Of a stretch of 64,000 nt of DNA, positions 4,493-7,586 are shown one piece after another. Source of the stretch: Patescibacteria group bacterium (GTDB lineage: Bacteria > Patescibacteriota > Microgenomatia > UM-FILTER-40-11); assembly GCA_035530075.1 (NCBI GenBank), contig DATKVM010000005.1:167006-231005 (forward strand), written 5' to 3'. Every line of letters begins with the position of its first letter. Position 1 is the stretch's first letter. The notes below the pieces were generated by a model. That model worked only from the letters and a program-made list of their open reading frames with translations, did no database searches and was not told where the DNA came from. Both the position numbers and the translations under genes were made by a program.

Positions 4493-5362
4493 TTAAAGCT
4501 TACTGGCATATTGCCCCGAAATCCAGCCGGTTTTCTCTTCTTCGTATTCGATCTTATACCAACCGGATTTTTCTTCAAGCAAAGGATACTTTTCGCCCGG
4601 ATTAACTTTGGCTACTTCGGTGGAGGTAGTGCTGGGACCGCTTCTCACTCGTAACCACCCGGTCGGAGTCTCTTTAATTAAGACTTCGCCGGAAGCGGGC
4701 TGGCTCTTGTCTGACGGTGTGGGTGTAATTTGCTTCTTGTCAGCCACCGTTGGTGTCGGGGTTCCAGACAAAGAAGCTACCGGCACCTCGTCCAATTCCT
4801 GAGCCAATTTCGCGTTTACAATTAATTTAAAACCGGTAACGGCCTTCGCCTTAATACTTTTTTCCACGAAACCTTCCTTGGAAATAACAATCTGATGATC
4901 ACCTTCTCCAATTTTCTCCACCGTTAACGGCGTAAAGCCTTTCGCTTCACCGTCCAGATGAACCAAAGCTCCATCTGGATCAGAAATTAAGGAAAAAGAG
5001 GCGGCTTTTTTGTCTTTCAATCGCTCCAGCGTTAATACTTGACCCGAAGAACCGGCTTCACTGGTGGCAAAATCTCTTTCAATTAAAGTTAAAACGCCAT
5101 TGCTCAATTTCACTTTTCCCTCCCAAGAAGCGAGAGGTGCGGTCGCTGATTCGGGGATTAATTTTAAGGAGATTTCTCCCGCTTTGAGGTCACTACTTTG
5201 ATAAGGAGTTTTTCCGGTTAATTTGCCATCAATAAAGACATTAGCAATAGGAGTAGTATTAATCTGCAGGGCGGCCGGCGACTTTTTTAGAGAACAGCCG
5301 GTAAGTAAACCCCCGCAAAGAAGGAAGCTGACAAAGACAAGTATCTTCTTCATCTTAAGCAC
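4493..5362 (-). CDS. lipoprotein with PEGA-like and C-terminal SH3b-like domains
   Basis: Signal peptide with lipobox (LLTGC). PEGA-like beta domains are followed by a C-terminal SH3b-like segment (GWYKIEYEEEKTGWISGQY). Confidence 0.55.
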   Translation of the reverse strand: MLKMKKILVFVSFLLCGGLLTGCSLKKSPAALQINTTPIANVFIDGKLTGKTPYQSSDLKAGEISLKLIPESATAPLASWEGKVKLSNGVLTLIERDFATSEAGSSGQVLTLERLKDKKAASFSLISDPDGALVHLDGEAKGFTPLTVEKIGEGDHQIVISKEGFVEKSIKAKAVTGFKLIVNAKLAQELDEVPVASLSGTPTPTVADKKQITPTPSDKSQPASGEVLIKETPTGWLRVRSGPSTTSTEVAKVNPGEKYPLLEEKSGWYKIEYEEEKTGWISGQYASKL

Positions 5363-5404: not shown

Positions 5405-6031
5405 TTAATTTTCCTCGCTCGTTTCCCCCTCGGTTCCCTCGGCTCTTTCTTTCAGCAAATGCACTATTCCCGGTATTACTGAGGCCAAAATAATCAGGGC
5501 GACAATCGGCAAAAGATAGCGGTCAACATTGGGAATTAAGCTGCCCAAGAAGAATCCGGCAATGGTCATACCGAAAGCCCATAGAATTCCCCCCAGAACA
5601 TTAAAAAAGAAAAAATGGCGATACTCCATCTTGCCAATACCGGCGGCAATCGGCACAAAGGTTCTCACCGCCGGGATAAAGCGGGCCAAGACTAAAGCTT
5701 TGCCGCCGTGCTTAGCAAAAAACTTTTGGGCCCTTACGAGATTTTTTTTCTGAAAGAAAAAAGACTCTTTTTGCTTAAGCAACCACCCCCCTAATTTCGT
5801 TCCCGTCCAAAAGCCGGCATTGTCCCCACCGATGGCGGCGACAATCAGTAAAGGAATTAAAAGGTGAATATTAAAAAAACCCTGAGAAGCGAGAAAACCG
5901 GCGGTAAAAAGGAGGCTGTCTCCCGGTAAGAAAAAGCCAAAGAAAAGCCCGGATTCGGCAAAAACCATAAAGAAAAGACCGAAGTAGCCAAAGGTTTTAA
6001 TAATTTGAATTAAATCGAGATGTGGCAACAT
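5405..6031 (-). CDS. DedA/SNARE-associated family membrane protein
   Basis: 208 aa. The hydrophobic profile is DedA-like, with a conserved ARFIPxVRTFVPxxAG segment and a GGAGAG RBS before the ATG. Confidence 0.8.
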   Translation of the reverse strand: MLPHLDLIQIIKTFGYFGLFFMVFAESGLFFGFFLPGDSLLFTAGFLASQGFFNIHLLIPLLIVAAIGGDNAGFWTGTKLGGWLLKQKESFFFQKKNLVRAQKFFAKHGGKALVLARFIPAVRTFVPIAAGIGKMEYRHFFFFNVLGGILWAFGMTIAGFFLGSLIPNVDRYLLPIVALIILASVIPGIVHLLKERAEGTEGETSEEN

Positions 6032-6313
6032 CTCTCCATCTTAACCGAAGCTAATCTTAGTTTCAAGAAGGATAATTGACTTTGCTTTCCGAGGCTGAAT
6101 AGGATAAACTATACATATAAACGCTAGTCCATTCGGCAAGAAGTAGAGCGGAATTAGAATAGGTTATAGATTATCTTGGCGGAAAGGTTCGAGCGAAGAT
6201 CTGCCAAGATACCTTGTAAGGAAAAGTTTGCGAAAAACCAGAGGTTTTTCGCATGACAAGACCTGGTAGCCAAGTAGTAAGGCAGCGGTCTGCCCGCCCG
6301 CTTTCGCCAACGC

Positions 6314-6385
6314 GATCGCGTAGCCAAGTAGTAAGGCAAGTGTCTGCAAAACACTTATGCGTGGGTGCAATTCCCACCGCGATCT
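6314..6385 (+). tRNA. tRNA-Cys (anticodon GCA), predicted by manual folding
   Basis: Perfect 7-bp acceptor stem (GATCGCG/CGCGATC) with U8. Perfect 5-bp anticodon stem (AGTGT/ACACT) with loop CUGCAAA (U33, GCA, A37). 5-nt variable loop and 5-bp T-stem (GTGGG/CCCAC) with G53-C61. Discriminator is U73, the CysRS identity element. The D-arm is short (3 bp) and the T-loop is UGCAAUU (G55 instead of U). No CCA is encoded. Confidence 0.65.
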
Positions 6386-6485
6386 CAAGGAAGCTCAAGC
6401 GTTGGCGGGCGGGCAAAACCGCTATTTGAACGAAGTGAAAGCAAGCTATGCTTATGCGCGAGTGCAATTCTCGCCGTGGTCTCCA

Positions 6486-6878
6486 ATGAAATTGAAAATT
6501 AAAAAAGGAAATTTCAATCTGGAAACAGTACCCTTCAAAGGCTGGGTTCTGGGTCATTTCATCGATAAAAGCTCTCCTTTTTATAACGTTGATTTCGAGA
6601 TTAAGTGGGCACGACATCATAAAGGAGAGATCAAAGAAGCAAGATTAGAAACACCCGCCAGAACCTTATCAATCTTGATCTCCGGCAAGCAGATTACCAA
6701 ATTTTTTTCCACCGATGAAGAAGTTGTTCTGGAGAATGAAGGTGATTACCTTTTTTATCAGCCAAATGTCCCCCATGTTAATGAATATCCAAAAGACACT
6801 CTGCTTTTGGTCATCCGTTGGCCCTCTATTCCTATCCAAAAACAAATAATTCTTCTTCCGCCGAAGAGTTATTCTTGA
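6486..6878 (+). CDS. hypothetical protein (beta-rich, cupin-like?)
   Basis: Downstream part of listed ORF 6357..6878. The 5' extension of that ORF merely reads through the non-coding tRNA-derived repeats, so the start was moved to an ATG at 6486. Confidence 0.4.
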   Translation: MKLKIKKGNFNLETVPFKGWVLGHFIDKSSPFYNVDFEIKWARHHKGEIKEARLETPARTLSILISGKQITKFFSTDEEVVLENEGDYLFYQPNVPHVNEYPKDTLLLVIRWPSIPIQKQIILLPPKSYS

Positions 6879-7456
6879 AGGTCGAATTCCTTAATCAGCT
6901 CGTCCCGCAGATAAACGCCGCAAACCCGCAAGACATCAGCCATATTTTTACCTGAAGTAAATGCGTATTTCTTTACTGGCTTTAACAGAGGATCGCTTGC
7001 CATCTCCACGATGGCCATAAACGCGGCCTCCTGCGCTTCATATTTCAGTTTTATATTGTGGCTCGAAACCAGTTTCAAAAACTTTTCTCGGTTTCTCTTA
7101 TAAATCGTCAAAAAACTGCTCTCTAAAAGCAGCTTTTCCCCTTGCTTAGTCAGTTTAATTGGGCTTTTATAATGAAGAAAGCGGTTAGTCGAAGAAGTAG
7201 AGCCAAGGAAAAGATAGCTTTTGAGAAACTTTTCAATCGAGCCGACTTTCCCCCGAATATAGTTAACGTCCTCTTTTAAATCATCAATATCCTTTTCAAT
7301 CTCCCCTACCCGGGCTGCGTTCTTCGCCATTCTGGAAAAACCGCGGAACACCAGAAAGCTTAATCCCGTCAGCCCAGATATCGGCAGCCAAAAATCCTTG
7401 ACAAAGAGTAAGGTAGAGGAAACGGTATAACCGGATGGTGTCGTTACGAGCGGCAT
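6869..7456 (-). CDS. hypothetical membrane-anchored protein with coiled-coil segment
   Basis: 195 aa with an N-terminal hydrophobic helix. There is no recognisable catalytic motif. Confidence 0.4.
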   Translation of the reverse strand: MPLVTTPSGYTVSSTLLFVKDFWLPISGLTGLSFLVFRGFSRMAKNAARVGEIEKDIDDLKEDVNYIRGKVGSIEKFLKSYLFLGSTSSTNRFLHYKSPIKLTKQGEKLLLESSFLTIYKRNREKFLKLVSSHNIKLKYEAQEAAFMAIVEMASDPLLKPVKKYAFTSGKNMADVLRVCGVYLRDELIKEFDLQE

Positions 7457-7586
7457 AAAAACCCAACGCTTCCATTCTTACACAAATGTTTCAAAAAACA
7501 CAAGGGGGTTTTGAGGTCAAAGATTTTCCTTGCCGTTTTTGGTTATTTGGTTATACTGGACTAATCGGGAAAGGGGGTGAGGAAAA

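Follow-up and report, generated by a model that had tools for sequence, protein, structure and literature searches.

A tRNA-Cys gene nested within an interrupted tRNA-Cys gene of a patescibacterium: a putative self-compensating insertion cassette

How does an intact tRNA gene come to lie between the pieces of another gene for the same tRNA? This question is raised by a 64,000-nt stretch of contig DATKVM010000005.1 from a Patescibacteria group bacterium (assembly GCA_035530075.1, positions 167,006 to 231,005), hereafter called the window, to which all coordinates refer unless a locus is named. An earlier note, made from the sequence alone, had described a tRNA-Cys gene embedded in tRNA-like repeats and had suggested that a tRNA gene was interrupted by, or duplicated around, a second one. 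This layout proved right, and the nesting is more complete than had been assumed: the region 6260-6485 represents a second, whole tRNA-Cys(GCA) gene, in the following referred to as the outer gene, which is interrupted by two inserts. On balance, we consider it probable that the larger of these inserts is a site-specific, self-compensating insertion cassette and that the outer pieces are a decaying, recombined relic.

An intact tRNA-Cys gene within an interrupted one

The inner gene was recovered with two of the tools that the earlier note had proposed as a check of its hand-folded tRNA-Cys with U73. ARAGORN calls a tRNA-Cys(GCA) at 6314-6386, which is the sole tRNA in the 64 kb, and Rfam returns family RF00005 at 6314-6385 with 63.9 bits (gathering score 29) and nothing other than tRNA, both at the gathering threshold and at E-values of up to 10. 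The cloverleaf scores above the threshold and has the GCA anticodon and the U73 of bacterial tRNA-Cys, and the D loop without GG, the T loop TGCAATT and the U73 correspond to the norm of the lineage, as seen in 117 tRNA-Cys genes of bacteria of the candidate phyla radiation (CPR). Judged by its sequence, the inner tRNA-Cys appears to be the functional gene.

The main insert in the outer gene comprises 121 nt (6293-6413) and separates G34 from C35, i.e. it is located at the centre of the TGCA in the anticodon loop, and it consists of a 5' arm, the inner tRNA-Cys, a 13-nt trailer and a 3' arm (Table 1). The outer anticodon stem is formed by GCGGT (6285-6289) and ACCGC (6418-6422), and the loop CTGCAAA is composed of CTG (6290-6292) and CAAA (6414-6417); the anticodon-arm-like hairpin with GCC that had been placed within the 5' piece was thus a misreading. 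The half-like copies recognised previously at 6260-6301 and 6458-6485 are well supported: 6266-6293 matches 6320-6347 over 28 nt with 89% identity, including a 19-nt identical block, and 6451-6483 matches 6354-6386 over 33 nt with 82% identity. A hidden Markov model (HMM) built on the 117 CPR genes detects the outer 5' piece at 6262-6293 (E=1.6e-8) and the 3' piece at 6449-6483 (E=3.3e-5), with E-values covering the whole window.

In silico deletion of both inserts leads ARAGORN to a call of an entire tRNA-Cys(GCA), including U73 and CCA. For this call, 6293-6413 and a stretch of 29-30 nt within about 6423-6455 were deleted; the ends of the second insert, which is located in the variable loop, are ambiguous, several cut points were tried, and the insert is annotated as 6424-6452. 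With only the first insert removed, ARAGORN makes no call for the outer tRNA, and its intron mode reports the inner tRNA alone in the native sequence. The outer 5' piece is 97% identical to the 5' part of an uninterrupted gene in a related bacterium (L132), and with a continuous loop the exon junction of the outer gene would read e.g. GGCAGCGGTCTGCAAAACCGC, with an acceptor GACCTGG...CCAGGTC. In the window itself, the acceptor GACCTGG/CGTGGTC pairs at five of seven positions, as had been noted, with the adjacent mismatches T5.T68 and G6.G67, so that the outer gene of the window, even with its inserts removed, does not have all four stems fully paired, in particular the 7-bp acceptor, as a functional tRNA-Cys would. 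The outer halves lie in cis, in normal order and on one strand, 121 nt apart, which does not correspond to a split or permuted tRNA and is in line with the low rank that had been given to this alternative.

The long-range helix that brackets the inner tRNA at its 5' end is real. Positions 6291-6301 pair with 6405-6415 (11/11) and 6305-6313 with 6399-6407 (9/9) in alternative registers, and the helix stops exactly at the 5' end of the inner tRNA. Together with the old anticodon stem, the arms form a rod of about 22 bp with a folding energy of -35 to -41 kcal/mol, calculated with the inner tRNA swapped for a tetraloop. On the DNA level, the ends of the insert represent terminal inverted repeats (CCCGCCCGC...GCGGGCGGG and further paired segments), as in miniature inverted-repeat transposable elements (MITEs) and insertion sequences.

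Regarding the loops of these tRNAs, we observed two combinations among the 117 CPR genes, the inner tRNA of L122 and the outer tRNA of L019 (L019 2264-2455). The usual D loop (AAGTAGTAA, no GG) occurs together with the T loop TGCAATT, which has a G at position 55, and GG is present in the D loop (AAGAGGTAA) of the few copies that carry the T loop TTCGATT. That the D-loop and T-loop types switch together is consistent with the tertiary contact 18/19-55/56.

Table 1 Features of the nested tRNA-Cys unit in the window and of related elements at other CPR loci. Coordinates of the L### loci refer to the respective contig.
Feature	Locus	Coordinates	Strand	Remarks
Promoter-like element	window	6076..6105	+	TTGACT-18-TAGGAT; candidate promoter for the whole nested transcript; promoter scan
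Leader hairpin 1	window	6172..6211	+	12-bp stem
Leader hairpin 2	window	6229..6253	+	11-bp stem TGCGAAAAACC/GGTTTTTCGCA; covariation
Outer 5' piece	window	6260..6292	+	positions 1-34: acceptor GACCTGG, D arm, GCGGT, C32 U33 G34
5' arm of main insert	window	6293..6313	+	CCCGCCCGC TTT CGCCAACGC; pairs with 6399-6413
Inner tRNA-Cys(GCA)	window	6314..6385	+	intact, U73, CCA not encoded; ARAGORN, Rfam
Trailer	window	6386..6398	+	13 nt, from inner tRNA to 3' arm; few positions vary between loci
3' arm of main insert	window	6399..6413	+	GCGTTGGC GGGCGGG
Outer middle piece	window	6414..6423	+	C35 A36 A37 A38, ACCGC (3' strand of anticodon stem), T
Second insert	window	6424..6452	+	29 nt in outer variable loop; removal needed for ARAGORN call of outer tRNA
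Outer 3' piece	window	6453..6485	+	TATGC, T arm GCGAG-TGCAATT-CTCGC, acceptor CGTGGTC, U73, CCA
GIY-YIG ORF	L143	2205-2456	-	
GIY-YIG ORF	L148	2228-2407	-	
GIY-YIG ORF	L016	6025-6252	-	
GIY-YIG ORF	L032	4722-4967	-	
GIY-YIG ORF	L072	4917-5132	+	
~31-nt elements	L016	about 6270-6300, 6330-6360	-	
~31-nt elements	L072	about 4870-4900, 5245-5275	+	
~31-nt elements	L032	near 5100-5200 and 4660-4700	-	

Nested, empty and recombined sites in related bacteria

The genes next to the unit encode an MraY-like protein, UbiA, a PEGA/SH3 protein and a protein of the DedA/VTT type. Their homologues carry the names Shapirobacteria or Microgenomates, which assigns the window to the CPR (Patescibacteria). Related CPR loci, labelled L###, were collected by a genome scan with a D-arm pattern, which gave 119 loci, 118 of them with an ordinary tRNA-Cys at the match. 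Nested loci among these were identified with the tRNA-Cys HMM, and further ones came from a metagenome scan with the 3' arm and from contigs fetched via the PEGA protein; the data for the carriers consist of the 64-kb window and contig fragments.

In total, 13 distinct nested tRNA-Cys loci were found among CPR bacteria, in several genomic contexts. L132 represents an empty site at the same locus, in the same orientation and with the same downstream open reading frames (ORFs), where the gene reads GACCTGG...GCGGT CTGCAAA ACCGC...CCAGGTC without interruption; its PEGA protein is 82% identical to that of the window and its downstream DNA 85% over 1.5 kb. L133, L142 and L007 likewise have a single tRNA-Cys gene. 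Such a distribution of filled (window, L124, L046) and empty sites (L132, L133, L142, L146) is of the type seen in homing, and the two states interleave among relatives, as the PEGA proteins of nested L130 and empty L132 are 89% identical and those of L046 and L146 79%.

Arms of the GC-rich kind occupy G34^C35 in the window, L124, L120, L046, L122, L148 and L019, and the 5' arm differs between them at no more than two positions, i.e. by C to T changes, one G to A in L124 and one deleted C in L148. L130, L137, L098 and L075 carry variant arms (CCTGCCCGC...GCAGGCGGG), with a double change from C-G to T-A that is compensatory in one helix register only, and L047 and L015 carry the unrelated arms TCCCGAT...ATCGGGA. 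Three kinds of arms without sequence kinship are therefore inserted at the same position, and the quite different paired flanks of the cassettes in L047, L015, L005 and L111 also abut the inner tRNA. The recurrence of one architecture with unrelated arm sequences suggests that the pairing itself matters. Presumably, the helix would shield the inner tRNA against the outer halves homologous to it or would contribute to processing; alternatively, it may serve in single-strand DNA recognition or in splicing.

The inner and outer copies differ in their state. The inner tRNA is intact in all 13 loci, and the inner allele termed A differs by 0-1 nt between hosts whose PEGA proteins are 63-69% identical, compared with 3-17 nt for single resident tRNA-Cys genes at comparable host distances. 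The outer gene is truncated in L046, L122 and the outermost copy of L015, and mismatched in the window, L120, L098 and L148. Additional inserts are found in the variable loop in five loci, with a homologous insert at the same position in the window, L124, L046, L130 and L137 and none in L120, L019, L122 and L148; the T loop of L148 is interrupted by an insert at TG^CA, and the middle copy of L015 has one of 110 nt. Only L019 and L047 have outer copies without a lesion beyond the main insert.

Individual loci illustrate this variety. In L120, L126 and L139 the outer acceptor is GGCCTGG/CCAGGCC; in L046, L121, L123 and L134-136 the outer gene is a different allele ("D"), the 3' end of which is deleted. 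At L046 it was lost together with the 3' end of a neighbouring PIF1/RecD-like helicase gene. The 5' part of the outer gene is deleted in L122, and the outer gene of L075 has D-arm mutations and has lost C35. L148, which contains the contigs L129 and L127, shows a row of tRNA-Cys fragments upstream and an outer 3' end of the type found in L146-type genes. L019 combines a third inner allele and an intact "D" outer gene with the same arms as the window in another context (rbfA followed by a tRNA cluster). Outer and inner genes are nearly identical in L098 and differ in L047 only by the flipped base pairs 5:68 and 6:67; L030 and L137 are further nested loci. L015 is a three-level nest X[Y[Z]] of which only Z is intact. 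The arrangement is reciprocal in L130, with the A allele outside and the native-type B allele inside; in L132, the nearest host, the B gene is not nested. Deriving L130 from a window-type arrangement by a single inversion, crossover or deletion failed. A compensatory change that we had seen in the outer anticodon stem of L046 relative to the window was withdrawn, since the outer gene of L046 is a D-type allele as in L019.

Many short metagenome contigs end inside the nested unit (L137, L139, L127, L129, L150-L152). The internal repeat seems to break assemblies, and nested tRNA genes are probably under-represented in metagenome-assembled genomes (MAGs). The labels of some records also deserve mention: L046, L075, L098 and other "binchicken" MAGs, as well as L002, L014, L028, L050, L065 and L091, have CPR gene content with tRNA-Cys genes of the typical CPR kind and are labelled Gammaproteobacteria, Woesearchaeota, Pacearchaeota or "archaeon", which probably reflects taxonomic mislabelling or mis-binning.

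Contigs ending within the unit, together with the 19-nt identical block common to both copies, could point to two co-occurring strain alleles that were misjoined during assembly. This explanation is almost out of the question, since the same unit is present in independent JGI, ENA, NCBI and Logan assemblies from many samples, the arm sequences of the nested unit were found nowhere else, and one ENA contig covers the whole unit made up of L129 and L127.

The 3' end of the outer gene can be traced to a different allele. L124 carries the same nested unit and is 99% identical to window positions 5508-6483, and its outer 3' end (GCGGG-TGCAAAT-CCCGC-CCAGGTC) is a perfect match for GACCTGG; CCAGGTC, the matching acceptor 3' strand, occurs in L124 and L132. 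The window and L124 do not differ over about 750 nt upstream of the unit, show 10 differences within it, six of them in the final 30 nt, and have unlike DNA downstream. Over 25 nt, the T arm and acceptor strand of the window (GCGAGTGCAATTCTCGCCGTGGTCT) match L007, where the gene is intact, without any difference, and the T stem GCGAG/CTCGC is also found in L047 and L145. The T arm and acceptor 3' strand of the outer gene are thus another natural allele, recombined onto a 5' half of a different allele. The pairing of only five of seven acceptor positions results from this exchange within the tRNA, and the T-stem change, which had been taken as covariation and as a sign of RNA-level selection on the flanking pieces, is a natural variant that was swapped in and does not indicate such selection. 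The comparison of orthologous regions that the earlier note had proposed accordingly supports covariation for the leader hairpins (see below) and not for the T stem.

Downstream of the unit, in the stretch 6486-7570, two ORFs without a Pfam match, 6486-6878 (+) and 6869-7456 (-), are present in the window and L132 and absent from L124, and the cupin gene downstream is only 76% identical between the window and L124. These differences place a recombination boundary at the tRNA.

The breakpoint inside the tRNA could also be taken to mean that no mobile element was involved and that diverged tRNA-Cys alleles recombined recurrently, by homologous or illegitimate recombination, at a hot spot, the arms being leader and trailer of the donor. 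The patchworks of alleles in the outer exons (window, L137, L148) fit this explanation, as do the inversion of the promoter and tRNA module relative to its flanks in some relatives and the 5' flank of the inner gene of L130 (TTTTTCAT), which resembles the end of the native leader. However, random events would not converge on the one phosphodiester bond G34^C35, which is hit in at least 13 loci by inserts with ends of three unrelated kinds, or on the middle of TTATAA in a tRNA-Ile; they would not hold the arms nearly invariant across contexts such as those of the window and L019, and they would not leave the inner copy always intact and in the same orientation. Recombination alone is therefore rather unlikely.

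A further alternative is that the 121-nt insert, and possibly the 29-nt insert too, is a true intron recognised by its structure and removed by an unknown endonuclease and a ligase. The helix would then join the exon ends, the outer tRNA would be spliced and the inner one freed by RNase P and RNase Z, giving two functional tRNA-Cys per transcript. This would agree with the perfect CTGCAAA loop and the ARAGORN-accepted cloverleaf after in silico removal, with the fully paired outer stems of L124, L130, L019 and L047, with the compensatory double change in the variant arms, and with paired ends that are kept at the junction over three unrelated arms and over anticodon, D and T loops; structure-recognised archaeal introns show similar behaviour. 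Yet the junctions lie opposite each other in a continuous helix without two 3-nt bulges 4 bp apart, Rfam gave no match to group I or any other intron family at E-values of up to 10, and many outer copies keep the insert although they are non-functional (halves missing, C35 lost or two acceptor mismatches), with lesions accumulating only in outer copies. Protein-dependent tRNA splicing is not known in bacteria. We therefore regard splicing as improbable. If the inserts were introns, nested and multiply interrupted tRNA genes would be a bacterial counterpart of the disrupted tRNAs of archaea.

Two specific intron types were rejected. For a bulge-helix-bulge (BHB) tRNA intron, the junctions face each other in a continuous 11-bp helix, as found by hand and by folding, and the alternative register offers a single 5-nt bulge on the 3' strand only, so that neither the canonical geometry nor the relaxed hBH / HBh' form is present. 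For a group I intron, no Rfam intron match was obtained on 6040-6560 at E-values of up to 10, and 72 of the 121 nt are tRNA.

Leader, related insertions and the search for a mobile element

A scan of the stretch that separates the inner tRNA from the outer 5' piece detected no promoter-like site, and the motif GCTTTCCGAGGCT..GGTAAAC is kept upstream of the outermost tRNA-Cys copy in relatives. Between promoter and tRNA-Cys lies a structured leader of about 150 nt (6106-6259), with counterparts in L142 (2069-2285), L143 (about 2520-2700, -) and L146 (about 2420-2600, -); it is absent from L132, L133 and L130. Its stems contain double changes in nine of 34 predicted pairs among four sequences, and the leader has no family match in Rfam. 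The earlier note had described its two hairpins as lying outside the tRNA model, which is correct. Hairpin 1 is kept with compensatory changes in L142, L143 and L146, all of which have an uninterrupted tRNA-Cys, and we conclude that the hairpins belong to a structured leader that is independent of the nesting. In L007, L133, L142 and L130, the promoter and tRNA-Cys module has the opposite orientation with respect to the DedA/PEGA flank from that in the window, L132 and L046.

Insertions into tRNA genes are not restricted to the nested units. Small GIY-YIG ORFs (83-95 aa) directly adjoin tRNA-Cys in five CPR loci, beside partial tRNA-Cys copies (Table 1), and in L032 a unit of tRNA-Cys and GIY-YIG ORF lies between the 5' relic and the 3' relic of another tRNA-Cys. 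Double-hairpin elements of about 31 nt (e.g. TCCCCCTGTGGGGGATCTCCCGTAGGGAGA) occupy TG^CA in anticodon and T loops without visible target duplication; their hosts are non-functional tRNA-Cys fragments, among them the relic pieces beside the GIY-YIG ORFs, and one insertion is located in a D loop. Other tRNAs are affected as well: in L005 (3960-4290) the middle of the anticodon-loop TTA^TAA harbours a nested tRNA-Ile(TAT), and in L111 (5170-5480) a relic copy harbours a tRNA-Lys(CTT) within its D loop. Relics of tRNA-Gly and tRNA-Leu are present in L030 (7560-7800), L033 (6620-6650) and L111 (4060-4090), and two of them, one Gly and one Leu, stop within the T loop, with the motif TCTTACAGAWTCTGTACA following in both cases. 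As a rough estimate, partial copies accompany 8 of 117 tRNA-Cys and about 5 of 183 other tRNAs in these loci.

The GIY-YIG ORFs recall SegB of phage T4, a homing endonuclease of the GIY-YIG family. SegB recognises a T-stem-loop motif of tRNAs and drives the inheritance of both its own gene and the tRNA genes nearby (PMC2330249). The likeness lies in an ORF of this family that adjoins tRNA-Cys with relic fragments alongside (L143, L148, L016, L032, L072). By contrast, the window has no such gene, the predicted CPR proteins comprise only 83-95 aa, and homing by SegB does not give rise to nested genes.

Common integration sites of mobile DNA include tRNA genes, so that integration of a prophage or island by an integrase might be considered, with the flanking pieces as attL and attR and the insert left over after a deletion. 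Besides the frequency with which tRNA genes are targeted, this would be in accordance with the inverted repeats at the insert ends, which abut the junction like core-type sites, with tandem units (a...a' a...a') in L130, L137 and L098 that resemble serial integration, and with the swapped 3' exon of the window. Nevertheless, no integrase was detected within 10 kb of the site among 10 of the about 25 ORFs between 5.4 and 16.1 kb, on which Pfam was run; the 57 kb downstream contain no displaced native 3' end, identity between the two junctions does not exceed 2 nt (GC) where a 6-8-nt overlap would be expected, and the 121-bp unit itself recurs in many genomes. Such an event is very improbable here. 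Of the earlier suggestion of site-specific integration remnants, the direction matches the comparative evidence, whereas the att-like displaced 3' fragment does not stand, since neither the native tRNA 3' end nor the present one has a second copy in the window.

Proposed origin of the nested unit

Insertion of a self-compensating cassette would accommodate most of these observations. In this scenario, a 121-bp cassette consisting of two complementary GC-rich ends around a complete tRNA-Cys of another allele would have invaded the resident tRNA-Cys at the exact centre of the anticodon-loop TGCA palindrome, between G34 and C35. Lacking a promoter of its own, the cassette would be transcribed with the whole unit from the resident promoter, and RNase P and 3' processing would free the inner tRNA, now the source of tRNA-Cys. 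By stacking on the old anticodon stem, the paired ends would form a stable rod and keep the outer halves off the folding inner tRNA. Because the cassette replaces the function that it destroys, its insertion would be neutral to the host and could spread. The broken outer gene is, in this view, a relic that may decay and recombine freely; that of the window has gained the second insert in its variable loop, and its T arm and acceptor 3' strand have been replaced by those of another allele. As for movement, we favour homing or gene conversion that follows a targeted break of the tRNA gene; co-conversion during homing would account for the patchwork outer exons, and some of the related loci have a small GIY-YIG ORF beside the tRNA.

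The asymmetry between outer and inner copies, the "Russian doll" of L015 and the row of fragments in L148 are as predicted by serial invasion of replacement cassettes, and they are hard to reconcile with two co-functional genes. In addition, acceptor pairs of the AC type and the TG type alternate between resident and invader (L047, L075, L015 and the 3' exon of the window), which suggests that they may be immunity alleles.

Several points weigh against a mobile cassette. A 121-bp element has no obvious means of moving. A search of the window with the GIY-YIG protein of L143 gave no homologue, and no nuclease, recombinase or transposase domain was detected among the ORFs covered by the Pfam run. 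Arm pairs elsewhere than at tRNA-Cys are absent from the window and from about 1 Mb of CPR loci, the 3' arm has no match among viral contigs, and only the tRNA portion of the insert matches phage and plasmid collections. By its sequence, the cassette therefore seems unlike an ordinary multi-copy MITE, having no arm copies beyond tRNA-Cys; multiple sites per genome and a target-site duplication, as expected for MITEs or insertion sequences, were not observed, and the 2-nt "GC" at both junctions is indistinguishable from a blunt insertion at TG^CA. The stronger conservation of the arms relative to trailer and cargo, as well as the single architecture shared by three sequence-unrelated arm families, also fits structure on the RNA level. 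Moreover, a single simple insertion does not account for the reciprocal arrangement of L130, and the outer genes of L124, L130, L019 and L047 keep perfect stems, those of L124 and L130 in spite of their variable-loop insert.

For CPR bacteria, we found no account in the literature of one tRNA gene nested within another, nor of tRNA introns spliced by proteins, and the systems that come closest differ in essential aspects. Integrative elements, i.e. prophages, integrative and conjugative elements and islands, also target tRNA genes, preserve their function by element-borne tRNA sequence and leave relic fragments beside a working copy, several after serial events. However, they bring a 3' segment and place attL and attR around a large element, whereas the 121-bp cassette brings a whole tRNA gene and yields a gene within a gene, mid-anticodon, with no more than 2 nt shared.

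The introns and split tRNAs of archaea show loop interruptions, non-canonical positions included, and GC-rich helices that join the halves, as in BHB introns, in the GC-rich complementary leaders of Nanoarchaeum and Caldivirga and in the intron transposition of Thermoproteales; several inserts per gene are possible, and a review states that the intervening sequences look mobile. Here, in contrast, the host is a bacterium, BHB geometry is lacking, the position is 34/35 and not 37/38, many interrupted copies are dead, and the copy of the same tRNA carried by the insert makes splicing unnecessary.

Bacterial group I introns (tRNA-Leu, tRNA-fMet, tRNA-Arg, tRNA-Ile) resemble the inserts in their anticodon-loop position and their sporadic occurrence with empty and filled alleles, but the unit described here has no ribozyme core and would be rescued by a replacement gene instead of self-splicing. 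Bacterial rRNA genes contain intervening sequences that form helices and are removed by RNase III without re-ligation. These are likewise small, rod-like inserts in hairpin loops of structural RNAs with a patchy distribution among relatives; they differ in that they bring no spare copy of the host gene, and an unligated break in the anticodon gives no working tRNA.

For annotators, insertion of such cassettes would be a warning to read tRNA halves that flank a tRNA as relics rather than as artefacts, and the loci offer concrete sequences for testing both nuclease targeting of an anticodon-loop palindrome and protein splicing of a bacterial tRNA. If true, the cassette would be a minimal selfish element that is rendered harmless by bringing along a spare copy of the essential gene it destroys, and that neither splices out, as introns and inteins do, nor rebuilds the end of its target, as integrative elements do. 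It would explain the tRNA fragments around CPR tRNA genes and would predict a successive replacement of tRNA alleles, visible as Russian dolls and as alternating acceptor pairs 5:68 and 6:67.

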